Sequence record: PQ821640
DNA from: Escherichia phage SD2
DNA: 64,000 nt
Direction: 5' to 3' (one strand)
Shown in pieces: positions 7,608 to 53,724 of this stretch; position 1 is the first letter of the stretch; every line of letters begins with the position of its first letter. A model generated the notes under the pieces. It ran no database searches. It was not told the origin of the DNA and saw only the letters and a program-made list of their open reading frames with translations. The position numbers and the translations under genes were made by a program.

Positions 7608-9341
7608 ATGAATATTTTTGCACCTTTTGCTACTGATTGGTACAAACCTGGTCACAAGCAGATGTACAACCAAAATACAAAACTTATTTTCTCTAATTTA
7701 ACTCCTCGTAATGATAAAAACTTTGCACACTATGCAGATCGTGAAGCACGTGGTGTGATTGTTTTAGGTATTCGTCGAGCAGTCACTGATGCTCTTGTAA
7801 CTATGTGGGATAGCTTCTTTAAAATGTCTCGTAGTGCAGCAGTAAATAAATTTTATCGTATGTCTAAAAATGCGTTAGGTGCTTCTGCTCCTTCTGCTGA
7901 ATGTTGGGGAGAATTGCACGACTTAGGTTATCTTCCGCTGGAAGTTCGATCTCTGCCAGAGGGTGTTTTGTGTCCTATTGGTGTTCCTGTATTTACTGTG
8001 CATAATACTTTAGAAAAATTCTTTTGGTTAACTAACTATGTGGAAACACTGTTGTCAGATGAAACTTGGAAGACAATGACTAATGCCACAGCAGCTTTTC
8101 AGTATAAGCGTATCGCTATGGCATATGCGATGGCAACGTGTGATAATATTGATCACGTTAACTTCCAGTGTCATGATTTTAGCCTACGTGGTTTAAGTAA
8201 TATCGAAGATGGTTATAAGAGTGGTATTGCTCATTTAGCATCTTTCACAGGGACAGATAATATTCTGGCTATTGAAACTGTGCATGATTATTATGGTATT
8301 GATTATGATCAGTTTGTTGCAGGTTCTATTCCGGCAACAGAACATTCAGTAGCAACTACTAACATTGGAGCTATTGTTGAAGACCTGAAGAAACATTTCC
8401 CACATCTTAAAGATGATGTAGATGGTCTTCGTTATGTAGCAGAGAAAGAGTTTCTTCGTCGTTATATTGAAGAAATTGTTCCAGAAGGTTTTTGTTCATA
8501 TGTAGCAGATTCCTATGATTACTGGGCTGTCTTGACTCGAATTCTGGTAGAATTGAAAGATTCCATTATGTCACGAAATGGTCGTCTTGTTATTCGTCCA
8601 GATTCAGGAGATCCGGTTAAAGTTGTTGCAGGATACAATGTTGAATCTTTTGATAACTATGAAGACCTCTTAAATAATGGTATTGCGACAGCCACTGAAG
8701 TAGTTCATTTGGCTGATGTTAATAAGTATTACAATGTTCTTCAGGATTGCAGTGTTGCTGACTGTATTGATGAAACTTATGAGATTCCTTATTGTGAAGC
8801 AGTAGGTTCTATTCAAATCCTTTGGGAAGTGTTTGGTGGTACTATCAACCGAAAAGGCTACAAGGTTCTTGATCAGCATATCGGTATGATTTATGGTGAT
8901 TCCATTACTGTTGAACGAGAACACGAGATCTTACGCCGACTGAAGAAGAAAGGTTTTGCAGCTTCCAATATTGTATTTGGTGTTGGTAGTTATACTTATC
9001 AGTTCAATACACGAGATACTTTCGGTTTTGCTGTTAAAGCAACAGGTAGTATCATCGGTGAACACGAAATTTTGGTAAGTAAGGAGCCTAAAACTGATCC
9101 TGGTAAACGCTCTGCAAAAGGTTTTATTAAGGTTGTTAAGGATACCAATGGTAATCTTTCTCTTGTAGATAATCTTTCTTTTAAAGATATCCAGGATGAA
9201 GACAATGAGTTACAAGTTATCTTCAAGGATGGTAAGGTTATTACACCACAAGTAGAAGGCCGTGATGAAACATTCACTGATATCCGCAACCGTGTTGATG
9301 TAGAGGTTCTTCGTACTATGGGAACCATCCAGGTTGACTAA
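7608..9341 (+). CDS. nicotinamide phosphoribosyltransferase-like protein (NadV/NAMPT family)
   Basis: N-terminal DWYKPGHKQMY resembles the NAMPT start; 577 aa; immediately follows the Prs-like gene. Confidence 0.7.
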   Translation: MNIFAPFATDWYKPGHKQMYNQNTKLIFSNLTPRNDKNFAHYADREARGVIVLGIRRAVTDALVTMWDSFFKMSRSAAVNKFYRMSKNALGASAPSAECWGELHDLGYLPLEVRSLPEGVLCPIGVPVFTVHNTLEKFFWLTNYVETLLSDETWKTMTNATAAFQYKRIAMAYAMATCDNIDHVNFQCHDFSLRGLSNIEDGYKSGIAHLASFTGTDNILAIETVHDYYGIDYDQFVAGSIPATEHSVATTNIGAIVEDLKKHFPHLKDDVDGLRYVAEKEFLRRYIEEIVPEGFCSYVADSYDYWAVLTRILVELKDSIMSRNGRLVIRPDSGDPVKVVAGYNVESFDNYEDLLNNGIATATEVVHLADVNKYYNVLQDCSVADCIDETYEIPYCEAVGSIQILWEVFGGTINRKGYKVLDQHIGMIYGDSITVEREHEILRRLKKKGFAASNIVFGVGSYTYQFNTRDTFGFAVKATGSIIGEHEILVSKEPKTDPGKRSAKGFIKVVKDTNGNLSLVDNLSFKDIQDEDNELQVIFKDGKVITPQVEGRDETFTDIRNRVDVEVLRTMGTIQVD

Positions 9342-36293: not shown

Positions 36294-38453
36294 ATGAAAC
36301 AGGCTATTTTTACTGTAACTCGAAATACGAGAGTAAATGCCAGTTCATTCAGCTATAAGACCGTCGATGGAACGGCGGTCGCTGGTAGAGATTATGTAGC
36401 TAAACAGGGAACAGTAACGTTCCCTTCTGATGCAGATTCTGCTACTGTAGTGGTTGATGTATATGAACGTCCGGCAAACTCTTTAGATCTTTATTTTACT
36501 CTTGAGATTACTAGCATAAGTCAAAATAACATGATGATCAATGAAGAAATTCGTTGTGTTATTACGACTAATCAATCGAATACAACCCCGCTAACTTGGC
36601 CTGTTGTGAAGTCTAGAATGTTTGATCCTAAGTTTTGGACAATAGATTCTCAAGCAACAGAAAGTTGTTCTATTATCTCTAATGGTGATTCTTTCACAGC
36701 AAGAATGGTTAATAGGACAGTGGCTGGTCTTGCTGGGATTATTTGGTCAACTTACGATAAATATGATCACAAAGGATTAGGCTACCAAGAACATTCTGAC
36801 TTAAGTAAAGAGAAACTTTGGTTTAAGATGGAACTTAGTCAAGGTGTTCCTGGATTAAAAGAAGAAAAATTATTGCCATCCTTAACAGTGACACTGAAGG
36901 ATGAAACAGTTCATTATGTATCTCTAAACTTTTATGCAGAAGAAGTTTCAGAGGATGGTAAAACAGCAACAATCAAATTAGATTTCTCAAACTTAAAATC
37001 GGGGCCAGAAAATAATATTGTTGTTGACACTACACAAATAGATAATATGTTCTTCTCCTTGATCTCAACGAGGTATCAAGAAATTGAAGATATTATTCCT
37101 GTGGATAATGTGGATCTTTCCTTTAAGTTTACCATACTGGAGCCTGATACTGGTTACAGTATGATGAATATGGGTAATTTAAATGTTCCAGCACACACCA
37201 TAAGAATGTGTACATCTTATGATGATATGTATAACCTGACCCCAGAGCGAGTTATTTCTAACACCTATAGATTAGGTTATAGGGATATGATTAACCACTA
37301 TAATGGTATGTCACACTATTATCAGTTTAGTTGGGATGCTGGTTCTAATAAATGGGCTTTGAATAGAACAGAATATTTAAACCCAGCAACAGAAGCATGG
37401 TTTGATAATTTCCACGCTAATGCAAAAGCTATGGGCTACACAGTAATGAATTCCTTAAGTTTTGAACTTATGAGTACAGTGTGTCCTGTAGAATGGGTAC
37501 AACATACTTGGAATGATGATCTTGCTGCTACAGGTTATGAGCCACCAAGTTATGTATTATCTCCTTCGATTGATGAAGGGATGAATTATTTACAAGGTGT
37601 GATAAATAAGATAGCCTCTATATCCGCTGCTAATGATCTTCCGGTTATTATTCAGGTTGGTGAACCGTGGTGGTGGTATAACACAGCTACCAATCTACCG
37701 TGTATTTATGATTATACAACCAAAGTTGCATTTAATAATGAAACTGGATTATATGCACAAGATGTTGGTACAGTTAAGAATTATAAAACTGGTACACCAT
37801 ATGATGAATATTATGCATTCCTATCTAAAACATTAGGACTGCGTGTTGCTAAATTTGCAACAGATACTAGATTAGCATATCCTGGAGCAAAAGTTACATT
37901 GTTACCATTTGTGCCATCCATTTTGGGTAATGGTATGATGGAGTTTGTTAACTTCCCTAAAGATTATTATATCCCAGAAAACTTTGACTTTTATTGTTCA
38001 GAATGTTATGACTGGTTGTTGGAAGGTAAGATGGAAAAATCTTTCGACGCTATCACAATACCTAATGAGCAACTAGGTTTTAGTTACGATAAGATACATT
38101 ATCTTGCAGGGTTTGTTCCAGATGCAACTCTAGCACCATTATATGGCTTTGATCCTGAATCAAACTATAGAACATATTTGTGGAAAATGATTATAGGTAA
38201 TATTGTATTGAATGACCAGAAGTTTGTTGGTTTATATCAATACATATGGGCTTACCCACAAATAATGCATGATTCAATAACTGTTCTTAATTCAAAATCC
38301 CAAGTGTTTTATATGGGTAATGTGCCTTTGAATTGCTACTTGCAAGATATCACTCTTAAACAGGTAAATGTTGAGATTGCCACTATAAGTGGAATTACAT
38401 TAGCCACTAAATCTGGAGAAGATTTAGTAACAACACAAAAATTTTATATATAG
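36294..38453 (+). CDS. large tail fibre or baseplate protein with Calx-beta-like N-terminal segment
   Basis: N-terminal DGTAVAGRDYVAKQGTVTF resembles a Calx-beta motif; 719 aa. Confidence 0.35.
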   Translation: MKQAIFTVTRNTRVNASSFSYKTVDGTAVAGRDYVAKQGTVTFPSDADSATVVVDVYERPANSLDLYFTLEITSISQNNMMINEEIRCVITTNQSNTTPLTWPVVKSRMFDPKFWTIDSQATESCSIISNGDSFTARMVNRTVAGLAGIIWSTYDKYDHKGLGYQEHSDLSKEKLWFKMELSQGVPGLKEEKLLPSLTVTLKDETVHYVSLNFYAEEVSEDGKTATIKLDFSNLKSGPENNIVVDTTQIDNMFFSLISTRYQEIEDIIPVDNVDLSFKFTILEPDTGYSMMNMGNLNVPAHTIRMCTSYDDMYNLTPERVISNTYRLGYRDMINHYNGMSHYYQFSWDAGSNKWALNRTEYLNPATEAWFDNFHANAKAMGYTVMNSLSFELMSTVCPVEWVQHTWNDDLAATGYEPPSYVLSPSIDEGMNYLQGVINKIASISAANDLPVIIQVGEPWWWYNTATNLPCIYDYTTKVAFNNETGLYAQDVGTVKNYKTGTPYDEYYAFLSKTLGLRVAKFATDTRLAYPGAKVTLLPFVPSILGNGMMEFVNFPKDYYIPENFDFYCSECYDWLLEGKMEKSFDAITIPNEQLGFSYDKIHYLAGFVPDATLAPLYGFDPESNYRTYLWKMIIGNIVLNDQKFVGLYQYIWAYPQIMHDSITVLNSKSQVFYMGNVPLNCYLQDITLKQVNVEIATISGITLATKSGEDLVTTQKFYI

Positions 38454-38461
38454 GAGTAAAA

Positions 38462-40810
38462 ATGTCAACTACAATTACTAATTTACCCGAAACATCAAAA
38501 GTTAATGATTCTGATTACCTGGTTTTAGACCAACCTGATAAGACTGTTAAAAGCACAGTTTCCAACTTTCTTACTGACACTGGGGTGGTTTTAGCCACCC
38601 AGCTAGAAGATATTTCTGGAGCTACCAAGTATCCAGAACTTCAAATGTCGCGCTGGAGAGATGAAGGTGATGTTCGTGGGTGGGGTGCAAAGGTTGATGG
38701 TGTAACAGATGACTCTGATGCATTGATTGCAGCAATTAACTCTGGTCGTTCTAAATTGATCTTACCAGCAGGACGTTGTGTTATCTCTAAAACTTTAGAG
38801 ATTCCTGCCGGGGTAACTCTTGAAGGGCAGGGTATTGATTATTGGGATACTTGGCGTCCTGATGAAACTCGTTTGTTGAAGAGTTGGGATAAAGGAACCC
38901 ATATTGTAGTAACTGGTACAGGTCTTCGTAATAAGACGTTTGGTAACTTATCTAATGAACGTCCTGTTAAAACTGTATCCGGTACTGTCTGTGAGTTTAC
39001 TAAGTTTACTAATGAAGATGCATCAGGTACTACTCCAGCCACGTTGAAGTCATTCAGTGTAGCTGTGTCTGTAACCCATGCATCCCAGTTAAAGAACTTA
39101 CGTATTCTACTCAATAATGATGGTATTGATGGATATAACGATTTTGTCTCTACAGCTTTGGGTGATGATTGGGACATTGGTCTGCATGTATATGATAGTT
39201 CAGAAGCTGTTGTTGAGAATGTTCAGGTATGCGGTTACTGGAGAGTTGCAGGTACTCTGCTAACAGAGAATGATGGTTCCTTCACTATGATAGGGAATCC
39301 AGAAAGAACTCGATTCAATCGTTTCTTTACTCAGGGTATCCGTGGTCTGTTGATTCGTAATAGTCCACAGATTGATGTAGTTAGTAATACAACTGACTCT
39401 GTTACGTTTAAGAAACAGACCTCTTTACGTATTACTGCAACTAACTCATTCAGAATCCCTGGTAGTGCAACACAATATGTATTCACCGGTTCTACTACTG
39501 ATGGTACTAACATTACTTTGACTGGAGTTACACCAGCATTGCCAGTATCTATTGGGGTTATTCGTTTCCCTAATATTGGGAATAACTTCTCTGGTACTGT
39601 GTTTGAGAATACTGTTACTACAAGTTTTGAACACTCGTCTGGTAAATCATCGGATACACTTGGTCTGCCTGTAGCATTCGCTATGGAGATTGATGGTTAT
39701 CCTATGCGTAACCTTCGCTTCGATAAGTTTAAAGCACAGACTACCTTTGATAAGGGTAATACCCTATTTGGTGATTGCCGTGACATTAAGATTACTTCTT
39801 CTGAATTTGAGAATGGTTTAGTAGTAGCTTATAGCCTTGCAGAGACTCAAGGGTATACAGGTAACCTTCGTCTGTTTGCATCTGATCTTCAGGCATCTAC
39901 TGATACAACTGGATTTAATCCAAGAGATGCATTCTTAGATAATAAACAGATTAAGACAGACTTTACCGATGGTTCCTTTATTTTGAAGAACTGGCGAGAT
40001 ACCAATACACGAATTCAGTTCTCTGATGGTAGTGATGGTATTGTCATGCGAGAAGGAGCAAGTGAAGCATCTCCTGGCGGGTACTATATGTATACCAAGG
40101 ATGGATTACGTTGGCTTTCCCTGAATGGTGTAACCAAAGGAATAGATTTCGCTGTCTCCAACGGCAGTATTAAATATGCTACTGACAACAGTGTGGTATT
40201 TAACTGGTACGGTGCATCTGGAAACATGAACTTTAAAGGTACTATTTCCCCTCTGGTAGATAATTCTAAATCATTGGGTACAGGTACATTCCGTTGGTCA
40301 CAGTTGTTTGCTGGTAGTGGTACTATCAATACATCTGATGCAAGAGAGAAAACAACTCCTCATGCTATTACGGATGATATATTAGATGCTTGGGGTGATG
40401 TATCTATTATTGCTTTCCAATGGCTTAACATGGTTAAAGCTAAAGGTGGTGATAGTGCTCGTTGGCATTTTGGCGTTATTGCTCAACAGGTCAGAGATGC
40501 ATTCAATGCGCATGGTATTGATGGAACCAGATTGGGTCTGCTTTGCTATGACGAATGGGAAGACCAATACGAACCTGTAATGGCTACTCGTGATGTTGTA
40601 ACCCGTATTGAAGTTTCTGAGGGAGTATTCGTAGAAAGAGTCACTCAAGAAGAATATGATACTGGTGAGACTAAGTTAGTTGTTGCAGCAGGTAGTCGTT
40701 GGGGTATTCGTCCAGATCAATGTGCTTGGTTAGAGGCTGCTTACCAACGTAGACGTAGTGATAGAATTGAAGAACGTTTAGCTGCTTTAGAGAAACGTTT
40801 ATCAAATTAA
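38462..40810 (+). CDS. tailspike with pectate-lyase-like beta-helix and C-terminal self-cleaving chaperone domain
   Basis: WGAKVDGVTDDSDALIAAIN motif; C-terminal SDAREK cleavage-site motif followed by a conserved chaperone-like tail ending RLAALEKRL. Confidence 0.65.
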   Translation: MSTTITNLPETSKVNDSDYLVLDQPDKTVKSTVSNFLTDTGVVLATQLEDISGATKYPELQMSRWRDEGDVRGWGAKVDGVTDDSDALIAAINSGRSKLILPAGRCVISKTLEIPAGVTLEGQGIDYWDTWRPDETRLLKSWDKGTHIVVTGTGLRNKTFGNLSNERPVKTVSGTVCEFTKFTNEDASGTTPATLKSFSVAVSVTHASQLKNLRILLNNDGIDGYNDFVSTALGDDWDIGLHVYDSSEAVVENVQVCGYWRVAGTLLTENDGSFTMIGNPERTRFNRFFTQGIRGLLIRNSPQIDVVSNTTDSVTFKKQTSLRITATNSFRIPGSATQYVFTGSTTDGTNITLTGVTPALPVSIGVIRFPNIGNNFSGTVFENTVTTSFEHSSGKSSDTLGLPVAFAMEIDGYPMRNLRFDKFKAQTTFDKGNTLFGDCRDIKITSSEFENGLVVAYSLAETQGYTGNLRLFASDLQASTDTTGFNPRDAFLDNKQIKTDFTDGSFILKNWRDTNTRIQFSDGSDGIVMREGASEASPGGYYMYTKDGLRWLSLNGVTKGIDFAVSNGSIKYATDNSVVFNWYGASGNMNFKGTISPLVDNSKSLGTGTFRWSQLFAGSGTINTSDAREKTTPHAITDDILDAWGDVSIIAFQWLNMVKAKGGDSARWHFGVIAQQVRDAFNAHGIDGTRLGLLCYDEWEDQYEPVMATRDVVTRIEVSEGVFVERVTQEEYDTGETKLVVAAGSRWGIRPDQCAWLEAAYQRRRSDRIEERLAALEKRLSN

Positions 40811-40820
40811 GCAAGCAAGG

Positions 40821-41015
40821 ATGCTTGCTCCTACTAGAAAAATAAAGAGGTACTATAAGGAGACGCAAAGGGCGTATTCCCTACCTGCTGATATTGCCCC
40901 AGGTACTACTGCCATTAGTCTTAGTGCTGCTGTACTTGTGCATTCAGCGGGTTCTGTAGACCTTGGGGAATTAGCTGTATCTCGTGATTTAAAAAGTAAT
41001 GAGAACGCATTATGA
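40821..41015 (+). CDS. hypothetical small protein (64 aa)
   Basis: Short ORF; start overlaps a hairpin. Confidence 0.25.
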   Translation: MLAPTRKIKRYYKETQRAYSLPADIAPGTTAISLSAAVLVHSAGSVDLGELAVSRDLKSNENAL

Positions 41016-41257
41016 GAAAGTTTTTAATCGGAATGTTTTGTACATATCCTGATAATAAAGTCAGCTCTACTAAAGTTTGGAATGCTATTGGTATGATTGT
41101 TATGTCCAGTATGTTTATTTATTTGGGAATTGATAAAGAAATTCCTGAATGGATGGGCTGGGCTTTTGTTTTTATGATCACACCATCCAGACTAATGAAG
41201 AATTTAATAGATTTACGTTGGGGTAGATCACCTGCCCCTGATAAGGAGGATAACTAA
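41012..41257 (+). CDS. holin-like small membrane protein (81 aa)
   Basis: Two hydrophobic segments (VWNAIGMIVMSSMFIYLGI and WMGWAFVFMITP) and charged C-terminus. Confidence 0.35.
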   Translation: MRKFLIGMFCTYPDNKVSSTKVWNAIGMIVMSSMFIYLGIDKEIPEWMGWAFVFMITPSRLMKNLIDLRWGRSPAPDKEDN

Positions 41258-44943: not shown

Positions 44944-45285
44944 ATGGAGCTAACAGAAGTATGGGATATCGCTAAAGAGGCGATTATCCCTCTTATTGGT
45001 GTAATCTGGGTGGTCTTCAAACAGAAGATAGATGATATAGCAAGTGATTTGGATAAAATGGAAGACAAATACCGTGAACTAGAAAAGAAGTTGGTGTTTG
45101 TTGAATCCACTTATGCTACCAAAGCAGAACTTGCTCAAATGCTTAACCAGATCAACTCTACATTAATGGCAAATAATACTGCCTTAGAACAGAAGATTGA
45201 AAAAATAATGGATTTAAAAAATGCTCCTGTTCAATTAATGCTAGAGGAGATTACGAAGCGCACACAAAGTAAGGACAAAAATTAA
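44944..45285 (+). CDS. hypothetical coiled-coil protein (113 aa)
   Basis: Charged helical sequence; start overlaps downstream gene. Confidence 0.35.
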   Translation: MELTEVWDIAKEAIIPLIGVIWVVFKQKIDDIASDLDKMEDKYRELEKKLVFVESTYATKAELAQMLNQINSTLMANNTALEQKIEKIMDLKNAPVQLMLEEITKRTQSKDKN

Positions 45286-47699
45286 TGGCGAATTTTCCAA
45301 CATATCCTGCTACGACACTAGAACAAGGTGTTGATCTGGTTATATTCTCGTCTAACCAGATGCATGATGTTATTAACGGGGATGCTACAGCAACTGTAGA
45401 AACCGAAACAGGTTTAATACCTACACTGCGTAAAGCACTTGTTGATAACTTCTTCTTTAAGAGTCCTGTTGCTTGGTCAGCAGGATCAACTGAAACTGTA
45501 TTTAACCAGTTACGTTATTTTGAAAACGGTATCTTGAGTGGGTACTACTATGCCCCATCTGCCACTACTGCGAACCCTGTACCTATGCAGGGTACACCTG
45601 TAGGAGATAGTAACTGGACTCTGTACGCTCTTAAAACTGAACAGTTAGCTTCAGATGTGTATCCTTGGTATTTTAAAGGTGCTACAGGATATGAAACAGA
45701 AATCAGTCCTCCTTATATCTTTGATAATGCTATTGTCACCATTAACGGTGTAATTCAGATTCAAGGTGAAGCATTTACTATCAAAGATAGTAAAATTATT
45801 CTGGCAGAACCATTAGGTTTAGATCCGTCTACTGGTCTACCTAACAAATTGTTTGCTTTTATTGGTAAAACAACAGCCTCTACTTCTTATGTAGAGAAAA
45901 ACCTTTTGTCATCTACCACTGGTGCAGCAATGGTTGGTCTTCCATCTGGAGGCAACCTGTTACAAGCTCAATACTTTGTAACGCCTGAACAGTTTGGTGC
46001 AATTGGTGATGGAGTTACCGATGATACTCAAGCAATTCTAAAAACCATTACTTTCGCTAACACGAATAACATTCAAGTACGTGCAGATAAGAATTATAGA
46101 TTCACAAGCTCAATTGCTATGTCTGGTATTCGTTGGTATGGTGGTACATTCACTGGTAACGGTGGAACAATGATTTCTACTGTGTCCTGTTGGATTGAAA
46201 ACGTTCGCTTTGAAAAATGTTATGTTAAGATGTTAGGTGGTGATTGTCGATTCTATCGTAATATCTTCTCCAACGCAACATCTACAGCAGCATTTTTAAT
46301 GCAAGCAATGACAAGTGAAGGTACGTTGGACTTCAGTTACAACGAAATGTATGGTTGTAAATATGCGATCCTGCAACAAGGTACTGGAGAAGTAATGACC
46401 TATGGGCGTTACTCTAACAACTACATTCACGATATCAAAGGTGATGCTATTGAACTTAACGTAGTTCAAAAACACTACACTGAAGGTTTGATCATCGAGA
46501 ATAACCACATTGCTAACGTAGATGCTTCTGGACAAGGGGCAAACTGGGGTATTGGTATTGGTGTAGCAGGTAGTGGCCCATATGGTGTTGATGCTCCTGA
46601 TTCACAATATGTACGTAACTTCAGTATCGTTGGGAATAGGGTTTACAATTGCCGTCAATGTTTACACGTTGAAATGGGTAAAAACTTTACGATACGTGAT
46701 AATGAAGTTTATCCTAACACAGCAGTTTCAACAGGTACAGGTTTAACTACTTGTGGTGTTGCATTATACGGATGCCAAGATTTTGAAGTTGATGGTTTAA
46801 CTGGTTATCTGCTTAATGATCCGTCTGTTTCAACACGCATGGTCTTTATTGACTGGGGTGTTAACAGTGGAAGATATGCGGGGCCACCAATTAACTTTAC
46901 AATTAAGAATTTGGATATTCCAGAATCTTCAATTGAAATTGCAACGGCTGGATCAGATGCCTGGGAAAACTCTACAATTGTTAGTAACATCAATTGTAAT
47001 GTTTTTAAATGGCGTGGACTACCATCTAGCTCTACCTTTAATAATATTCGTTGCCGTAGTATTGACTTTATTGGTCAACACGGAAGCGGAGAAGGAAGTG
47101 GTGGCGGTTTCTATACTCGCAGCCAATTCACTTATATGAAGTGGGTAGGATGTACAGCACTTAGCGGAGATGAAACAACAGTTTCTTTTGCTAAAATCTA
47201 CACGGATCGTTGCGATCAGGTTGGAAATAACTTTGGTGTTCCAACTGCTGTTGATGGTACAGGTCATCGTGGGCCAGTCTTAACCACTATTTCTGAACAA
47301 TATTTTACAGATTATGATGAATTCCCAGGTGGGCGTGACTTCCCTACTGGAACAGTTATTCATTGTGCAAGCGGTAAAAAACACGTTGTTACAGTAGGTG
47401 GTGCTTTCTTTAGTAATAATGAGAAAATAAAAGCAACTGTTACAGGTCAAACCTATCTACAGTCTAATGCTTTAAACTGGGCTAGTAATGGCTACGCTAA
47501 AGCAGCAGGTACTAAGATTGTTATTCCAGGTGCAGGTGCAAATGGCGGCGATCTTGTGACAACTATAGCACGTGCTACGTATGTGACAAATAGTTTGTAC
47601 ACAATAGATATTGCAGATCCAATTGTAACACCTACAGCAGAGAATACAAAAATTAAAGCTCTGAACCCTGTTACTTTTGTTACTGTCAATAATGCTTAA
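45285..47699 (+). CDS. tailspike with pectate-lyase-like beta-helix (candidate depolymerase)
   Basis: FGAIGDGVTDDTQAILKTITFANTNN motif; 804 aa; terminator after stop. Confidence 0.6.
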   Translation: MANFPTYPATTLEQGVDLVIFSSNQMHDVINGDATATVETETGLIPTLRKALVDNFFFKSPVAWSAGSTETVFNQLRYFENGILSGYYYAPSATTANPVPMQGTPVGDSNWTLYALKTEQLASDVYPWYFKGATGYETEISPPYIFDNAIVTINGVIQIQGEAFTIKDSKIILAEPLGLDPSTGLPNKLFAFIGKTTASTSYVEKNLLSSTTGAAMVGLPSGGNLLQAQYFVTPEQFGAIGDGVTDDTQAILKTITFANTNNIQVRADKNYRFTSSIAMSGIRWYGGTFTGNGGTMISTVSCWIENVRFEKCYVKMLGGDCRFYRNIFSNATSTAAFLMQAMTSEGTLDFSYNEMYGCKYAILQQGTGEVMTYGRYSNNYIHDIKGDAIELNVVQKHYTEGLIIENNHIANVDASGQGANWGIGIGVAGSGPYGVDAPDSQYVRNFSIVGNRVYNCRQCLHVEMGKNFTIRDNEVYPNTAVSTGTGLTTCGVALYGCQDFEVDGLTGYLLNDPSVSTRMVFIDWGVNSGRYAGPPINFTIKNLDIPESSIEIATAGSDAWENSTIVSNINCNVFKWRGLPSSSTFNNIRCRSIDFIGQHGSGEGSGGGFYTRSQFTYMKWVGCTALSGDETTVSFAKIYTDRCDQVGNNFGVPTAVDGTGHRGPVLTTISEQYFTDYDEFPGGRDFPTGTVIHCASGKKHVVTVGGAFFSNNEKIKATVTGQTYLQSNALNWASNGYAKAAGTKIVIPGAGANGGDLVTTIARATYVTNSLYTIDIADPIVTPTAENTKIKALNPVTFVTVNNA

Positions 47700-47702
47700 T
47701 TA

Positions 47703-47725
47703 AAAGGGGCGAAAGCCCCTTTATA
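47703..47725 (+). terminator. rho-independent terminator
   Basis: AAGGGGC-GAAA-GCCCCTT hairpin plus TTAT. Confidence 0.5.
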
Positions 47726-47739
47726 AAAGGAGTAGTAAA

Positions 47740-49710
47740 GTGATTTTAACACGTCCAAATAGTGCCATTGCAGACATGGTAGAGTCTCGCTATAGAAAGC
47801 GTAGAAGTTTTGCAAGTGGTTTTACCTTAAGAGATGCTCGTGAAGCATTGCTCTTTGAAGCTGACGGTAACTACTATCAGTGGAAAGGTTCTCTACCTAA
47901 AGTTGTACCTGCTAACTCTACTCCTACATCTACTGGAGGGATTTCAGATACAGCTTGGAAAAATGTGGGTAATGCAGATGACATTGCTCAAATAGAATCA
48001 GAATTAGATGCTATTGAAGCTGAAATTGAAGATCTTAGAGAATCCATCCCAGAAGCTGGTAAATCAGCTTACCAGATTGCCGTAGACAATGGTTTCCAAG
48101 GCACTGAGACACAGTGGTTGGCTTCTTTAAAAGGTGATCCAGGTGCTCCATTAAAGCTATTAGGGACACTATCTAATACCAACCAATTACCTACAAGTGG
48201 AAACAATGCAGGGGATGCATGGATTGTAGGCGAGAATATGTATGCTTGGGATGGTACTGCTTGGAGAAAAGTAAACTCACAGGGGCCAGAAGGTAAATCT
48301 GCTTATGAAGTATGGCTTGCAGCAGGAAATGAAGGTACAGAACTAGACTATCTTGCTTCAATTAAAGGTGATAAAGGGGAGCCTGGCCCAGAGGGGCCAC
48401 AAGGTGTGCCAGGTAACAATGCTAATGGTTTTGATTACCAAGGCGCAGCTAATTCCGTTTCAGATCTTCCTTCTGCATCTCATGGAAACACATCTCAAGC
48501 ATGGAGTGTTGGTACATATCTATACGTGTCAAACGGTGTAGAATGGATCAATATGGGTGCTATAGTGGGGCCAAAAGGAGATAAAGGCGACAAAGGAGAT
48601 AAGGGTAACACTGGTGATTCAGCTTATCAAGTCTGGTTAAATGCTGGTAACGTTGGTACTATTGACGAATATATTGCCTCTCTGAAAGGAGAAAAAGGTG
48701 ATAAGGGAGACAAGGGTGATCAAGGTGCACAGGGTATACAAGGCTTGACGGGGCCAACTGGTGCAGGGTTGACCATTATTGACATTCTGACTAGCACTTC
48801 TGAACTACCACAAACTGGAGAAGATGGTGATGGTTATCTGATCAATAATGAACTTTGGGTCTGGTTGCAAGGAGCCACAGAGTGGACAAATGTTGGTCGT
48901 TTAGCTGGTACTCCAATCACTGCAAAAGGACACGTTGCGTCTGCAAGTGCACTTCCTCCTACAGCCAATTACGGTGATGCTTATCTGACGGAAGATACAG
49001 GTCATCTTTACATTTACACCTATAATGAACAAACTCAAACTGCTGAATATGTAGATATGGGTAGTTTGAAAGGTGATAAGGGTGAAAAAGGTGAGAAAGG
49101 TGACGCTGGTACTAACGGTACAGACGGTGCAACTTGGATTGTTAAAACAACAGATCCAATCTCTAGTGATGGTAAACAAGGTGATTATGCCTTTAATATC
49201 TCCACTGGCGAGGTGTTCTTAAAAACATCTGCAACTGTCTGGACTTCTCAAGGTACACTACCTAGTATCACAGATGCACCTAGTGATGGTAAGACTTATG
49301 CTCGTAAAGATGGGGCATGGGAAGAACTCACTAATTCTGTAGATGGTCAAGATATAGTTCCAACAAAAGTAACAACTAATTTTATAGAGGTTACAGCATA
49401 TACCAACAATTCTGTTACAGGGGACTGGACACCTCCAGGAACACATAACATGAATGTGTTGAATCTTACTGGTAACGCTACTATAAAAGCATGGCCTGGT
49501 GTCGAAGATAGTACAAAACCTAAACCATTCTCTGCAATAGTTTATCTTATCCAAGATGCCACTGGAGGTCGTACTGTTACTTTAGATCCATCTTACAAAG
49601 TAATTGGTTCCAGTGATATTAATACAGATCCTAACGGAGTAACAATACTACAACTAACATATTGTGGTGTTGGCGATTACGTGGATGCTATTGTTGCTAA
49701 ACGCACATAA
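47740..49710 (+). CDS. collagen-like tail fibre protein
   Basis: Four Gly-X-Y tracts (GDKGEPGPEGPQGVPG, KGDKGDKGDKGNTGDS, KGEKGDKGDKGDQGAQGIQGLTGPTGAG, KGDKGEKGEKGDAGTNGTDG) and three SAYQ...WL...GTE...YLASLKG modules. Confidence 0.6.
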   Translation: MILTRPNSAIADMVESRYRKRRSFASGFTLRDAREALLFEADGNYYQWKGSLPKVVPANSTPTSTGGISDTAWKNVGNADDIAQIESELDAIEAEIEDLRESIPEAGKSAYQIAVDNGFQGTETQWLASLKGDPGAPLKLLGTLSNTNQLPTSGNNAGDAWIVGENMYAWDGTAWRKVNSQGPEGKSAYEVWLAAGNEGTELDYLASIKGDKGEPGPEGPQGVPGNNANGFDYQGAANSVSDLPSASHGNTSQAWSVGTYLYVSNGVEWINMGAIVGPKGDKGDKGDKGNTGDSAYQVWLNAGNVGTIDEYIASLKGEKGDKGDKGDQGAQGIQGLTGPTGAGLTIIDILTSTSELPQTGEDGDGYLINNELWVWLQGATEWTNVGRLAGTPITAKGHVASASALPPTANYGDAYLTEDTGHLYIYTYNEQTQTAEYVDMGSLKGDKGEKGEKGDAGTNGTDGATWIVKTTDPISSDGKQGDYAFNISTGEVFLKTSATVWTSQGTLPSITDAPSDGKTYARKDGAWEELTNSVDGQDIVPTKVTTNFIEVTAYTNNSVTGDWTPPGTHNMNVLNLTGNATIKAWPGVEDSTKPKPFSAIVYLIQDATGGRTVTLDPSYKVIGSSDINTDPNGVTILQLTYCGVGDYVDAIVAKRT

Positions 49711-49712
49711 TC

Positions 49713-49737
49713 AAAGCCCCTTCGGGGGCTTATTATT
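49713..49737 (+). terminator. rho-independent terminator
   Basis: AAGCCCC-TTCG-GGGGCTT hairpin plus ATTATTT. Confidence 0.55.
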
Positions 49738-49749
49738 TAAGGAGATTAA

Positions 49750-52569
49750 ATGTATCCTATTCCTTTATTTATGTCAACAACACCAGCTTCAGTAGTAACA
49801 GCTACATCTATAACCACTTCCTCTATTGGTATTGCAATAGTTGGTAGTAAAAAGCAACTGACATACACAGTTTCACCAGAAGATGGTGCGTTATTTGATA
49901 TAGCTTTTTCATCTTCAGATAATACCAAAATGGTTATAGATAATAACGGTATGATGGAGTTTGTTGCTGAAGGCGGTTTTGATGCAATAATGACAGCTAA
50001 AAATAATTTAGGTGCTGTCTTAACTGATCAATCTGGTGGCTATGCTTCAGAATTAAGTGTGTACACTGAAAGTCTGTCTGCTATGGATGCAGGAACTACT
50101 CAACAATTGGTTGCTACAATCAGTCCAGAAGGTGCTAAAGACCTTCCAGACATGGTAATTACGTACACCACAACAGATCCAGAAGTAGCTACTGTAAGTC
50201 CTACAGGATTAATAACTGCTCTTAAAGATGGCAGTTGCCGTATAGGTTGCACTGCAACTTATCAAGGAACAGTGGTGGCCTCTGATAGTTCTTATTTAGG
50301 TGTTAATGCTATTCCTGTTATTTCTAATGTAACAGCCGTGGCAAACAGCTATGGAGACATTCGTGTTGCTTGGGATGTAGCTGATCCGCTAGATGGTGAT
50401 ACTTATACTGTAGAAGTATTAGATTTGAGTAATAACAGTGTCCAGTGGACTACAACAACCACGAATACTTACGCTTACTTTGATATCTCTGACTCTATTC
50501 CTCTTTATGGGTTTGCTCCAACATACCTTAAAATTAGCGTTAAGAGCACCAAAGCAGCACCCGTTATCTTTAATAACTCAATAGCTACAGATGATTCATT
50601 CATTAAAGAAGTTATTGTCTTTGCTGGACAAGATAACGTAAATGCACACTTTACAGAACTATCTGGTGCAAATAAAGCAGCAATGAGTAGCACAACAGCC
50701 CGTAATGCATATGCTACGCAACGTGGTTTAGCAAATGCTGAAGTTCTTCCGTTAAATACAGCTTCTGGATCATCAGCAGCAGATAAATATGCTGACGATA
50801 AAGCCGGAACAGGTACACCAGACAACTACTGGTATGATCTGGATAACACAGCAGATGGGCCATGCTTAACTAACTTTATCACTAAAGTCACACCTTATGC
50901 AAGTAAGGTTAAAGCGATTATTTGGGGACAAGGTGAAAATGATGCTGTATCAGCATCTTCAACTGTTGCAGGTAGATACAGTAACACTACACGTTACCAT
51001 GATGCTACGATAGCCATCTTTGATAAGATGCGTACAATAGTTCCTGCTTCTCAAGCAAAAATTGTTTGGCAGATCCTAGGACGTTCTTATTTATATGGTG
51101 TAGAAGTTAATGGTGTGGATTGGCAGAAATACAGAAATGTACAAAGAACCATCTCTACAGCACGTGACGATGTTATCATTGGTTCTTGGGTGGATGGTGC
51201 TGAACGCTACAGTGGTTATGTTTATGAAGAAGGTATTGCTGGTCGTATCCATTATATTTCTTCTGTATACCAAACAGCAGCTACAAAACTTGCTAAATCA
51301 GCAGCAGACGGTACAGACTTAACATCAACACCACCTGTTTGGGTTGATATGGCTGTTCCAACTGGAGCAACAGCTACTTCCCAAGCTAATCAAGATACAA
51401 TTTTAGCATGGGATGCTCAAGGTTATAGTAAACACTACTTCCGTAATATTAACGTCTTAACAGCATCTGTATTAACTGAACAAACCCTTAATACGAACAG
51501 TTATACGTTTACCTATGCAGATCAAGTAGAACAATATGGTTTTGCAGCAGGAACTACTATATTTGATGTTGCATATTATGACGAAGCAAATGATGTGTTA
51601 TCTCCTTTAGTACGTTTTAATGTTAGCGTTACAGCAGGAAAAGTAGAAGATAAACCTGTCGTGATGGACTATGATTTGACGCAAGAAACTCTTCCATCAG
51701 ATGTTAAGGTTAATGGTGGGAACTCTTTTGCTCGTGCCTCTGGAGATAAACTTGTAGCCACTAACACCTTGGTTGCTCCGTTGGAGTATGTTGGTACTAC
51801 CCCTGTAGGTAGACGTGTAACAGCTAACACAGCTACACAAATTTTTGTCAACAACGCCTTAACAAGTGCAAGCCCGTGGGTAAAGACCAACTTAACTGTT
51901 GCAGCTTCATCTGATAACTCTCCGGCTGGAACTACTGCTAATGTATTCAAATTAACTCCGACTACAACCTCTGGTAGTCATATCTTAACTGCAACATATA
52001 CTAACGCGTACAACATATCTGCCGGACGTAACTGGTCTGCCTCTGTTTTCTTGAAAGCGAACGGGATTACTAAGGCCAAACTAAGATTAAAAGCAGGAAC
52101 TGAAGTTAATGAGGGTACTTTTGATTTAGCAGCAGGTACATTCACAGGAAGTGAAGCTAATATTATATCTATGGGCAACGGTTGGTATCGTGCTATTCTG
52201 CATAAAACAGGGATAGCCAAACAGTCCTCCATAAGTTTTGAAATAATTGCCTTGGATGCAACTGGTGCGGAGATTTTCGCTGGAGATGGTACTAGTAACC
52301 TTGCAGTTTGGTTGCCACAGCTTGAAGGTGCTTCTACAGGAGACACATCAAAAGCTGGATCGCCTTATGTCTGCACATATCCTGGAAATTTAGGAGGAGT
52401 ATCCTTCACTATACCAAGGAACGGACATACTGGTGTGGATGTTTACTATTCCAACGGAGACGTTGTTCGTGACGTATTCTCTGGTACGGCATCTACTTGG
52501 ACAATAAACTACTCCAGCTTGTACGATTGGGGATCAGTCTTTATTACAGGTTTGAAATATTACGACTAA
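49750..52569 (+). CDS. tail fibre or spike with SGNH/sialate-O-acetylesterase-like domain
   Basis: Blocks VIVFAGQDN and IIWGQGENDA match esterase blocks I and III; Ig-like N-terminal repeats; 939 aa. Confidence 0.55.
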   Translation: MYPIPLFMSTTPASVVTATSITTSSIGIAIVGSKKQLTYTVSPEDGALFDIAFSSSDNTKMVIDNNGMMEFVAEGGFDAIMTAKNNLGAVLTDQSGGYASELSVYTESLSAMDAGTTQQLVATISPEGAKDLPDMVITYTTTDPEVATVSPTGLITALKDGSCRIGCTATYQGTVVASDSSYLGVNAIPVISNVTAVANSYGDIRVAWDVADPLDGDTYTVEVLDLSNNSVQWTTTTTNTYAYFDISDSIPLYGFAPTYLKISVKSTKAAPVIFNNSIATDDSFIKEVIVFAGQDNVNAHFTELSGANKAAMSSTTARNAYATQRGLANAEVLPLNTASGSSAADKYADDKAGTGTPDNYWYDLDNTADGPCLTNFITKVTPYASKVKAIIWGQGENDAVSASSTVAGRYSNTTRYHDATIAIFDKMRTIVPASQAKIVWQILGRSYLYGVEVNGVDWQKYRNVQRTISTARDDVIIGSWVDGAERYSGYVYEEGIAGRIHYISSVYQTAATKLAKSAADGTDLTSTPPVWVDMAVPTGATATSQANQDTILAWDAQGYSKHYFRNINVLTASVLTEQTLNTNSYTFTYADQVEQYGFAAGTTIFDVAYYDEANDVLSPLVRFNVSVTAGKVEDKPVVMDYDLTQETLPSDVKVNGGNSFARASGDKLVATNTLVAPLEYVGTTPVGRRVTANTATQIFVNNALTSASPWVKTNLTVAASSDNSPAGTTANVFKLTPTTTSGSHILTATYTNAYNISAGRNWSASVFLKANGITKAKLRLKAGTEVNEGTFDLAAGTFTGSEANIISMGNGWYRAILHKTGIAKQSSISFEIIALDATGAEIFAGDGTSNLAVWLPQLEGASTGDTSKAGSPYVCTYPGNLGGVSFTIPRNGHTGVDVYYSNGDVVRDVFSGTASTWTINYSSLYDWGSVFITGLKYYD

Positions 52570-52571
52570 TA

Positions 52572-52601
52572 AAAAAGGAGCCATTAGGCTCCTTTTCTTT
52601 T
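52572..52601. terminator. bidirectional rho-independent terminator between convergent operons
   Basis: AAAGGAGCC-ATTA-GGCTCCTTT hairpin with T-runs on both strands. Confidence 0.6.
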
Positions 52602-52604
52602 ATC

Positions 52605-53036
52605 TTAATCAGTGAAAATTACGCTTACATCTTCTTTAGAAAAGAGTTTATGATTTTCACCTTTTGTCTCAAGAGTTTCATACAGGTTAAGAAGTTCTGA
52701 AACATCTTTCTCTACCAGTTTCTTCAATGTTGCAATTTTCTGTTTGCGATTCTTAATACGTTCAGCTACAACCTTACGTTGGTATCCGGCAGTACGATAA
52801 CCTGAGAAAGTTACACCAGTGAGACTTGCAGTTACAGGATCGTAATGACGTTCAATCTGAAATTTATTAAAAGGTACAGCGTCATCACGAATAATCTTAC
52901 CGCCATTACTTACTTGACGAAGACCAGTAACTTGTTCCAGTCGTGCCATAGAAATCTTTGGAGACAGACCAGAATCCAGGTTCATACCGTTGTTAATCAG
53001 TGCTTTCAGGGTGATTTTGCTGTTCAGTGTACTCAT
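52605..53036 (-). CDS. hypothetical protein (143 aa)
   Basis: ORF behind GAGGAA; overlaps 3-prime end of methyltransferase gene by 44 nt. Confidence 0.4.
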   Translation of the reverse strand: MSTLNSKITLKALINNGMNLDSGLSPKISMARLEQVTGLRQVSNGGKIIRDDAVPFNKFQIERHYDPVTASLTGVTFSGYRTAGYQRKVVAERIKNRKQKIATLKKLVEKDVSELLNLYETLETKGENHKLFSKEDVSVIFTD

Positions 53037-53724
53037 TTAGTCGTTCCTCTGCTTGCTTAAAAATATTTACATCGGCTTCACAGCCTAAGTATTCTCTACC
53101 TGTTAAAAGTGCCGCAACTTGTGTTGTTGCACTTCCAGAGAAGAAGTCTAAGACTACATCTCCTTCGTTGGTATGTATATTAATAAGGTCACAAAACAAA
53201 GTCAAGTGTTTTTGTGTCGGATGAAAACGATCTGCTCCTTGATAGATAGGATACTCAAACACACCCTTATGGTAGGAAGCATTGAAGGTTGGCTTCGAAC
53301 CTTTAACACAAACAATAGCCATCTCTTTAGCGTTACTAAGGTAGTTAACACCACTATTGATGGGTACAGGGTTTGTTTTAATCCATTCAATAGTACGGAA
53401 CATACGAAAACCAAGCGGTTCAAGGATTTCACGTAGTTCCTGGATCTTCCAGATATCATACCAAACTATGCAAGTACCACCTTTTCTAAGCACCCTATAG
53501 GCTTCTTTGAATACTTCTTTAAAGTAAGGAATATCTACAACATCCCAGTCACCAAAGTTGTAAGATACACGGAATCTATCCGTATCTTTTCCAGTAGGTT
53601 CTCCAGATTGAAAATTTGTGTCACGAGAAATAGCATATGGTGGGTCAGTAAGAATCAAATCTACACTATTGCTTTCGAGGGTTTGCAGGTAGTTTAATGC
53701 GGTGTTGTTTACAAATTCGCTCAT
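52993..53724 (-). CDS. DNA methyltransferase (beta-class amino-MTase, N6-adenine or N4-cytosine)
   Basis: Motif IV DPPY (LILTDPPYAI) N-terminal to motif I FxGxG (VLDFFSGSATT). Confidence 0.75.
   Translation of the reverse strand: MSEFVNNTALNYLQTLESNSVDLILTDPPYAISRDTNFQSGEPTGKDTDRFRVSYNFGDWDVVDIPYFKEVFKEAYRVLRKGGTCIVWYDIWKIQELREILEPLGFRMFRTIEWIKTNPVPINSGVNYLSNAKEMAIVCVKGSKPTFNASYHKGVFEYPIYQGADRFHPTQKHLTLFCDLINIHTNEGDVVLDFFSGSATTQVAALLTGREYLGCEADVNIFKQAEERLNEYTEQQNHPESTD

Follow-up and report, generated by a model that had tools for sequence, protein, structure and literature searches.

Phages related to phi92 are the standard example of a multivalent adsorption apparatus, which has been called a "nanosized Swiss army knife" (PMC8594841, PMC11984140, PMC13450770), and one of its components, the tailspike gp150, is reported in literature cited by PMC13450770 to hydrolyse colanic acid at the beta-1,4 glucose-fucose bond. 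A second described system that bears on the present analysis is that of coliphage N4, in which gp65 has been described as the receptor-binding protein (PMC13434306); use of the NGR glycan has been reported both for Justusliebigvirus phages and for N4 (PMC11990801). Here we analyse three consecutive large genes, referred to as gene 1, gene 2 and gene 3, that occupy positions 45285-52569 of a 64,000-nucleotide stretch of DNA from Escherichia phage SD2 (sequence record PQ821640; this whole stretch is the window in what follows). We read this cluster as the distal end of a phi92-like late structural module that encodes three accessory host-recognition proteins, namely a colanidase tailspike, a collagen-like fibre, and a modular adhesin with a probably non-catalytic SGNH domain, and we put the probability of this reading at roughly 0.7.

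The 7.3-kb stretch that spans the cluster is 98-99% identical at the DNA level to many Escherichia phages of the genus Justusliebigvirus, among them W22, PHB05, BME3, alia and PaulScherrer, and by this measure the source phage is itself a Justusliebigvirus, that is, a phi92-like myovirus of the Stephanstirmvirinae. The order of the genes is the same in annotated Justusliebigvirus genomes, including that of phi92: short tail fibre, chaperone, small membrane protein, colanidase tailspike, collagen-type fibre, "tail protein", and a convergent methyltransferase. An initial annotation of the window had described three consecutive large genes here, and a list of open reading frames bears this out, with gene 1 at 45285..47699 (804 residues), gene 2 at 47740..49710 (656 residues, GTG start) and gene 3 at 49750..52569 (939 residues), all of them, like the features within them, on the plus strand. 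The same annotation held that the cluster encodes three distinct receptor-binding proteins, which agrees with the known host-binding genes of phi92-type phages, and that the phage appears to carry at least five or six adhesins or depolymerases, suggestive of a multivalent host range. We count approximately seven candidates when the upstream genes are included, matching the published phi92-like apparatus.

The window thus shares with phi92 its gene order, its flanks and the multivalent "Swiss army knife" concept (PMC8594841, PMC11984140). It differs from phi92 in that the third gene, split there into two open reading frames (gp152 and gp153), is intact at 939 residues, and in that the tailspike allele farther upstream (38462-40810) is not the phi92 endosialidase. 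The cluster is already known, as near-identical annotated genomes have been published and a crystal structure exists for one of the three proteins. The alignments described below add one new detail, which is that the supposed esterase domain of gene 3 is without its catalytic serine.

The SGNH-fold domain of gene 3

On comparison of the two sequences, gene 3 is a long, unbroken form of what phi92 carries as the separate frames gp152 and gp153. The full-length AlphaFold2 model of its product has a mean predicted local distance difference test score (pLDDT) of 79, with values above 90 over most of residues 20-630, and it shows the domains strung out like beads: first a pair of Ig-like domains, then a beta-sandwich, an SGNH domain and a second beta-sandwich, after which the C-terminal domain follows. 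The two Big_2 Ig-like domains (residues 14-188; 49789..50313) match PF02368 in two stretches (E 6.9e-14; 52 bits against a cut-off of 22.8) and are modelled with a pLDDT of about 90. They are followed by a first, FN3-like beta-sandwich (residues 190-277; 50317..50580), which AlphaFold2 predicts to be all-beta with a pLDDT above 90, and by the SGNH/SASA-fold domain (residues 280-525; 50587..51324), which is assigned from AlphaFold2, Foldseek and profile comparisons and bears non-canonical active-site residues. A second FN3-like beta-sandwich (residues 535-628; 51352..51633; AlphaFold2 pLDDT about 90) leads to a variable C-terminal domain (residues 629-939; 51634..52566), which is recognised by sequence matches in the PDB and is absent from phi92 and from ECGD1-type phages. 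Neither the two beta-sandwich linkers nor the C-terminal domain gave a significant match in Pfam.

The sandwich-SGNH-sandwich cassette (residues 190-628) turns up as one block in many proteins. As a whole, the product of gene 3 looks like a single multi-domain chain, comparable to N4 gp65 and the appendage of Sf11 gp17, rather than a classical trimeric fibre; both of those proteins are single chains in their virions, as described or modelled. An assembly artefact was considered as the origin of the open reading frame and rejected, since over 25 assemblies made independently contain an identical 939-residue frame.

Querying a word index with just the SGNH domain retrieved no more than two fragments, so that an exhaustive HMMER search was needed. 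This search, conducted with residues 275-530, yielded 79 cluster representatives, 29 of which were used to build a family profile. The AlphaFold2 model of the SGNH domain by itself has a pLDDT of 94.2 and a predicted template modelling score (pTM) of 0.92. When this model was compared with known structures using Foldseek, N4 gp65 was matched with a template modelling (TM) score of 0.79, followed by CE2, PatB and GDSL esterases; there were 52 PDB matches at E<=0.001, and the 50 best of these, N4 gp65 apart, consist almost wholly of SGNH/GDSL esterases or acyltransferases. The family profile, searched against the PDB, matches N4 gp65, labelled 'non-contractile tail sheath', with an E of 6.1e-63 and in two tandem copies, and it also matches the SASA/CE6 esterases 2APJ (5.5e-7), 7KMM (2.7e-5) and 1ZMB (5.6e-5). 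Gene 3 on its own scores 14.2 bits (whole protein) or 17 bits (domain) against Pfam SASA (PF03629), for which the cut-off is 24.8, and 23 of the 29 profile members match Pfam SASA at E<=0.01, the best of them at 4.2e-14. Judged from these models and matches, the SGNH fold of gene 3 is real.

The initial annotation had pointed to two SGNH/sialate-O-acetylesterase-like blocks, GQDN and GQGEND, in gene 3. The fold stands, and both blocks (GQDN at residue 293 and GQGEND at residues 393-398) align with SASA/SGNH blocks I and III; within block III, Gly121 and Glu122 (numbering of alignment A2) never vary, and Gln120 and Asp124 hardly do. An active acetylesterase, on the other hand, is unsupported, given that the nucleophile serine is replaced by aspartate and the triad aspartate by glycine. 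The position of the SGNH nucleophile serine is taken by Asp295 (codon at 50632..50634), so that the block reads GQDN as against GQSN. A hidden Markov model (HMM) alignment places Asp295 on the serine of the GQSNM motif of 2APJ (residues 29-33), which we take to be its catalytic Ser31. Among the 79 homologue representatives, this position is occupied by Ser in 66 and by Asp in 2. In block V, His501 (codon at 51250..51252) is kept, and the residue three positions earlier, usually Asp, is Gly498. The block reads G-R-I-H where 2APJ has D235 and H238, presumably the members of the catalytic triad together with its serine, and the D-x-x-H pattern is lacking. The closest relatives that bear GQSN also have Gly at the block V Asp position.

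The likeness of gene 3 to SASA/CE6-type SGNH acetylesterases (PF03629; 2APJ, 1ZMB, 7KMM) therefore lies in the common fold and in blocks I, III and V of the family alignment, whereas the Ser/His/Asp triad of 2APJ corresponds to Asp295, His501 and Gly498 in the window protein, whose own Pfam score is below threshold. Because the nucleophile Ser is Asp295 and the triad Asp is Gly498, esterase activity of gene 3 appears doubtful. We read the SGNH domain as one that has moved off canonical serine-esterase chemistry, with a presumed loss of catalysis, and has been retained as a binding or scaffold module.

Comparison with relatives indicates how much of gene 3 can vary. Relative to the window, phi92 is without 225 bp (window 50340-50564) and 938 bp (window 51634-52571) of the gene, the remnants of which are found as gp152 and gp153 at 21321-22983 of its genome (NC_023693); the 225-bp deletion removes most of the first beta-sandwich. 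This difference from phi92 had been noted in the BME3 paper (PMC12210895). The intact 939-residue form is present in BME3, PHB05, alia and PaulScherrer, while the ECGD1-type protein has 628 residues and is without the C-terminal domain. In Avunavirus, the homologue at 8116-10059 of Av-05 (KM190144) is a 647-residue protein with the motif GGDN and no C-terminal domain, and its gene is the last of the structural module.

The C-terminal domain (311 residues) was assigned by PDB sequence matches and not by fold, since the model of residues 631-717 is unusable. It matches the C-terminal appendage of the Sf11 distal tail protein gp17 (E 1.5e-19) and the RcGTA head-spike fibre Rcc01080 (E 6.2e-14). 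All of these are peripheral appendage domains, although the Sf11 and RcGTA carriers, a siphophage distal tail protein and the head spike of a gene-transfer agent, are entirely unlike gene 3. The function of the Sf11 gp17 appendage is stated to be unknown (PMC12724387). An allele of the domain at approximately 63% identity is found in other Justusliebigvirus genomes and in phAPEC8-like phages, and in the latter it sits behind an RCC1 plus Big_2 module. Because the gene is broken in phi92 and truncated in ECGD1-type phages, and because its C-terminal alleles differ, these comparisons mark gene 3 as a modular gene that phi92 can do without and whose distal end varies. In the mechanism that we propose, its product would be a non-essential, modular, adhesin-like chain with a swappable C-terminal domain, in which the SGNH-fold domain would most likely serve as a glycan-binding or scaffold module and not as a canonical serine esterase, and in which the variable C-terminal domain may supply extra glycan specificity.

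Among solved structures, the closest relative of the SGNH-fold domain of gene 3 is N4 gp65, the partner of which is gp64 (PDB 9LC0, 9YF4). The beta-sandwich/SGNH-fold/beta-sandwich cassettes of the two proteins are homologous, and the full-length model of gene 3 aligns with gp65 over 484 columns with a root-mean-square deviation (rmsd) of 4.1 (Foldseek E 5e-30); the best full-length matches after gp65 are Ig-chain adhesins and S-layer proteins. In N4, however, the cassette is duplicated and is fused to NCTSP_N and a partial TIM-barrel in a 1382-residue chain that wraps the tail of a podovirus, whereas the window belongs to a myovirus, has the NCTSP_N and TIM-barrel domains in a separate gene (36294-38453), and has Asp in place of Ser. 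Neither NCTSP_N (PF23844) nor TIM-barrel_NCTSP (PF23845) was found in gene 3 in a Pfam scan, and the gene at 36294-38453 scores 274.9 bits for NCTSP_N and 75.2 bits for the TIM-barrel. This gene is a homologue of gp142 with Calx-beta, NCTSP_N and TIM-barrel domains. Its product matches both N4 gp64 (E 3e-27) and N4 gp65 (E 4e-12), and seems to form within one chain a TIM barrel for which N4 may use two. Moreover, the NCTSP_N/TIM-barrel part is fused to the gene 3 cassette in the metagenomic proteins P0038, P0039, P0043 and P0046; in P0039 the fused part is a copy of the 36294-38453 protein that is 35% identical to it. By analogy with N4, it is a reasonable idea that gene 3 and the 36294-38453 product would together act like gp64 and gp65.

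The colanidase tailspike and the collagen-like fibre

The product of gene 1 is identical to full-length phi92 gp150 at 795 of 804 residues (98.9%). Its residues 180-804 align with residues 2-626 of PDB 6E0V/6E0W (1420 bits) with few substitutions, and it matches phrog_6117, 'colanic acid degradation', with an E of 4.6e-270. At 98.9% identity, gene 1 is predicted to encode a colanic-acid hydrolase, the orthologue of the phi92 gp150 colanidase. The initial annotation had called this product a pectate-lyase-type beta-helix protein. The lyase label has to be dropped. The match of gene 1 to Pfam PF12708 (Pect-lyase_RHGA_epim) reaches only 14.4 bits against a gathering cut-off of 27 (E 0.034) and covers residues 236-295 only, and because gp150 is reported to hydrolyse colanic acid, gene 1 would be a glycoside hydrolase and not a lyase. 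On these two grounds we rejected membership of gene 1 in the pectate-lyase family. The fold of the protein is presumably a beta-helix, in keeping with a GenBank note, 'phi29_gp12 type'.

Residues 1-179 of gene 1 (45285..45821) lie outside the crystallised fragment and gave nothing significant in Pfam. Residues 12-126, however, match residues 15-130 of the phiTE baseplate chain 9cuy_g, 'Putative tail fiber protein' (E 9.3e-18). This chain is taken to be the phiTE long tail fibre, residues 14-171 of which have been modelled in the baseplate (PMC11972413). The homology to a baseplate chain therefore makes the N-terminus of gene 1 a plausible attachment module. At the other end of the protein, residues 704-792 (47394..47660) form a TSP_Ig-like domain (PF20745, E 5e-14, 52.7 bits against a cut-off of 27.9). 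We envisage gene 1 as a trimeric tailspike that would be docked, probably at the periphery of the baseplate, by its N-terminal domain of approximately 180 residues. The body of the spike would hydrolyse colanic acid, clearing the exopolysaccharide and making the cell surface reachable for the phage.

Gene 2 encodes a protein that is 98.0% identical to phi92 gp151 and matches phrog_15437, 'tail fiber protein', over its full length. The N-terminal Tail_spike_N anchor (residues 11-77; 47770..47970) is recognised by Pfam PF18668 (E 4.2e-21, 75.2 bits against a cut-off of 25), and in the PDB the N-terminus matches the N-terminal parts of CBA120-type tailspikes and of Sf11 gp13, a protein mounted on the Sf11 tail. 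Four Gly-X-Y tracts and three repeated modules had been claimed for this protein, and all of them could be located. The tracts, at residues 210-227, 277-294, 317-343 and 445-465, consist of 6, 6, 9 and 7 triplets and span 48367..49134, where they are interleaved with SAY..SLKG and LP..W..G modules. The three SAY..G..GT..SLKG modules (residues 109-132, 187-210 and 294-317) precede Gly-X-Y tracts, and four LP...W...G modules lie between the tracts, with a fifth, looser copy beyond the last. The Pfam Collagen score is above its cut-off (PF01391, 35.2 bits against 27.2), and since at most one run of at least six Gly-X-Y triplets arose in 2000 shuffles of gene 2, we rejected a chance or low-complexity origin of the tracts. 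Among the domain searches suggested with the initial annotation, then, that for collagen succeeded, whereas the pectate-lyase-like and SASA families, scored in Pfam with the single sequences, stay below their gathering cut-offs. The sole difference in length between gene 2 and gp151 is one extra Gly-X-Y triplet (9 nucleotides) in the fourth tract (49072-49134, residues 445-465). This triplet is probably a product of repeat slippage, which in this tract would give slight variation in fibre length between isolates.

Downstream of the tracts, residues 508-534 (PSITDAPSDGKTYARKDGAWEELTNSV; 49261..49341) resemble the foldon of T4 fibritin. Compared with that foldon, 12 of the 27 residues are identical, a number that none of 2000 shuffles equalled, and gene 2 matches Pfam Fibritin_C at an E of 0.001 and 19.6 bits, just below the cut-off of 21. 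The C-terminus gave nothing significant in Pfam. These features fit a trimeric, collagen-stalked fibre, the trimeric state being our inference. Such a fibre would attach through its Tail_spike_N domain and be lengthened by four collagen-like triple-helix segments with small globular modules between them; the foldon-like motif would probably keep the trimer in register, and a small distal binding domain would stand at the end. Gene 2 resembles the CBA120/G7C-type collagen-like fibres with Tail_spike_N in its N-terminal PF18668 domain, in its Gly-X-Y tracts and in the SAY...SLKG repeats ahead of the tracts, and it differs from them in that its collagen segments are followed by a motif resembling a foldon.

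Alternative readings of genes 2 and 3

Several observations weigh against the reading of the cluster given above. Asp295 of gene 3 is conserved across clades that are 47% identical, and His501, Glu396 and Asp398 are kept in Justusliebigvirus; this conservation could mean that the site is maintained, and possibly catalytic, rather than dead. In two GenBank records, gene 3 goes under the name 'tail carbohydrate esterase'. Its C-terminal domain is poorly modelled by AlphaFold2, with a pLDDT below 50 for residues 631-717. Lastly, a 2026 electron cryomicroscopy study of phi92 listed gp150 and gp151 among its candidates for fibres but found that they misfit the density of fibre II, and did not consider gene 3 (PMC13450770). 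Gene 3 might, as the initial annotation and the two GenBank records suggest, be an active, virion-borne carbohydrate esterase that de-O-acetylates a host glycan by means of Asp295 and His501 or of other residues; its substrate could be, for example, the O-acetylated fucose of colanic acid, beside the colanidase, or the NGR glycan. The confident SGNH fold speaks for such an enzyme, and so does the finding that GQDN, GQGEND and RIHY occur in 32 of 32 Justusliebigvirus-type sequences, every one of which thus retains the block V His as well as GQGEND. Justusliebigvirus and the Av-05-type proteins (47% identity), which read GGDN, share an Asp where the nucleophile would stand, and this points to selection on the residue. 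Most members of the family, moreover, retain GQSN and match Pfam SASA (23/29, best E 4e-14), and esterase tailspikes exist in N4-like phages (PMC11654681). Against these points, the triad Asp is Gly498, the block V His has become Gln in two of the three Av-05-type representatives, as expected of a decaying active site, and the window protein itself scores below the Pfam SASA threshold. It also counts against an esterase that we know of no SGNH hydrolase with an Asp nucleophile, and on balance we regard an active enzyme as improbable. The product of gene 3 could also be a dispensable, Hoc-like Ig-domain decoration of the tail or head that confers weak, non-specific adherence to glycans or mucus and does not trigger infection. 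Big_2 Ig-like domains do open its N-terminal half, phrog_215 ('structural protein with Ig domain') and 'major tail protein' PHROGs match residues 11-199, phi92 is fully infectious with fragments of the gene only, short forms without the C-terminal domain are common, and Ig-chain adhesins and S-layer proteins follow N4 gp65 among the full-length structural matches. We nevertheless think a mere decoration unlikely, as its central cassette has a homologue in gp65, which PMC13434306 describes as the receptor-binding protein of N4, as allelic replacement at the C-terminus is typical of specificity domains, and as the gene lies in a cluster of receptor-binding proteins away from the head genes.

The place of gene 2 in the virion can be questioned in a similar way, since a head or neck fibre, whether fibritin- or whisker-like or a head spike, might be encoded here instead of a baseplate tail fibre. 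The GenBank note for phi92 calls the N-terminus of gp151 a 'potential capsid binding domain', gp151 resembles the head spike gp52 of phage Pa223 in addition to misfitting the fibre II density (PMC13450770), and foldon-like motifs are typical of T4 fibritin, which is a neck fibre. The Tail_spike_N domain (75 bits), on the other hand, is the module that mounts CBA120-type tailspikes and Sf11 gp13 on tails, gene 2 is flanked by two tail-associated genes, and its PHROG neighbours are all annotated as tail fibre, so that a location on the head or neck seems to us rather unlikely, if credible. A comparably tentative proposal, which we hold at low confidence, is that gene 3 and the 36294-38453 product are the two separate parts of a myovirus counterpart of the N4 gp64/gp65 sheath, with the NGR glycan as the structure it recognises. 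The SGNH domain, with its Asp fixed in Justusliebigvirus and Avunavirus, would then be either a lectin-like pseudo-esterase that binds an acetylated sugar and leaves it uncleaved or an undescribed Asp/His variant of the SGNH hydrolases. We continue to favour the reading of the cluster as a colanidase tailspike, a collagen-like fibre and a modular adhesin at the end of the late module.

Flanking features and significance

Each of the three large genes has a ribosome-binding site of its own. In genes 2 and 3, an AGGAG box stands 6 nucleotides 5' of the start codon, and the start of gene 1 overlaps the stop codon of a preceding small gene by 1 nucleotide. This small gene (44944-45285, 113 residues) lies between the genes for the tail-fibre chaperone and the colanidase; its product has a hydrophobic N-terminal helix and a coiled coil, is annotated 'lipoprotein', and has a weak Rz-like spanin match. 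The initial annotation assigned a terminator of its own to each of the three large genes, and a GC-rich hairpin does follow each of them: at 47703..47722 on the plus strand after gene 1 (AAAGGGGCGAAAGCCCCTTT; -14.4 kcal/mol), at 49714..49731 on the plus strand after gene 2 (-13.1 kcal/mol, terminator-like), and at 52573..52596, with no strand assigned, after gene 3 (-15.4 kcal/mol). Terminators are annotated at these positions in two GenBank records. The U-tracts of the first two hairpins are weak and interrupted (UUUAUAAAA and UUAUUAUUU), a good T-run being present in the third only, and the rule of our terminator scan is satisfied by the second and third hairpins but not by the first. In the region as a whole, the scan counted 7 terminator-like elements against 4.9 +/- 1.8 in shuffles, which is not a clear excess. 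The hairpins after genes 1 and 2 look like leaky terminators or stabilising hairpins. The hairpin after gene 3, because it is sited between convergent genes, is probably a bidirectional terminator that closes the late structural module.

On the far side of this last hairpin, a minus-strand open reading frame (52605-53036) and a Dam-like methyltransferase gene (52993-53724) converge on it, and these convergent minus-strand genes form the border between the late structural and the replication modules. Upstream of the cluster, the tailspike gene at 38462-40810 stands at the position of the phi92 endosialidase gp143. It is a different allele that encodes 782 residues with a C-terminal Peptidase_S74 chaperone domain, and the variable DNA at 38722-41029 has no match in phi92, BME3 or PaulScherrer. 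This locus, 38462-40810, is the real host-range variable spot of the phage.

Phi92-type multivalent adsorption apparatuses have been studied since 2012, and the present cluster adds little to them as a discovery. It does bear on how gene 3 should be named and studied. Since the catalytic Ser and Asp are replaced, the label "tail carbohydrate esterase" is unwarranted without an assay. The phi92 copy of gene 3 has decayed, and structural work on phi92 therefore cannot locate the protein in the virion; the long-form phages BME3 and PaulScherrer are suitable for that purpose. Finally, gene 3 and the TIM-barrel gene, being homologous to gp65 and gp64 of N4, are a candidate pair for recognition of the NGR glycan by Justusliebigvirus.

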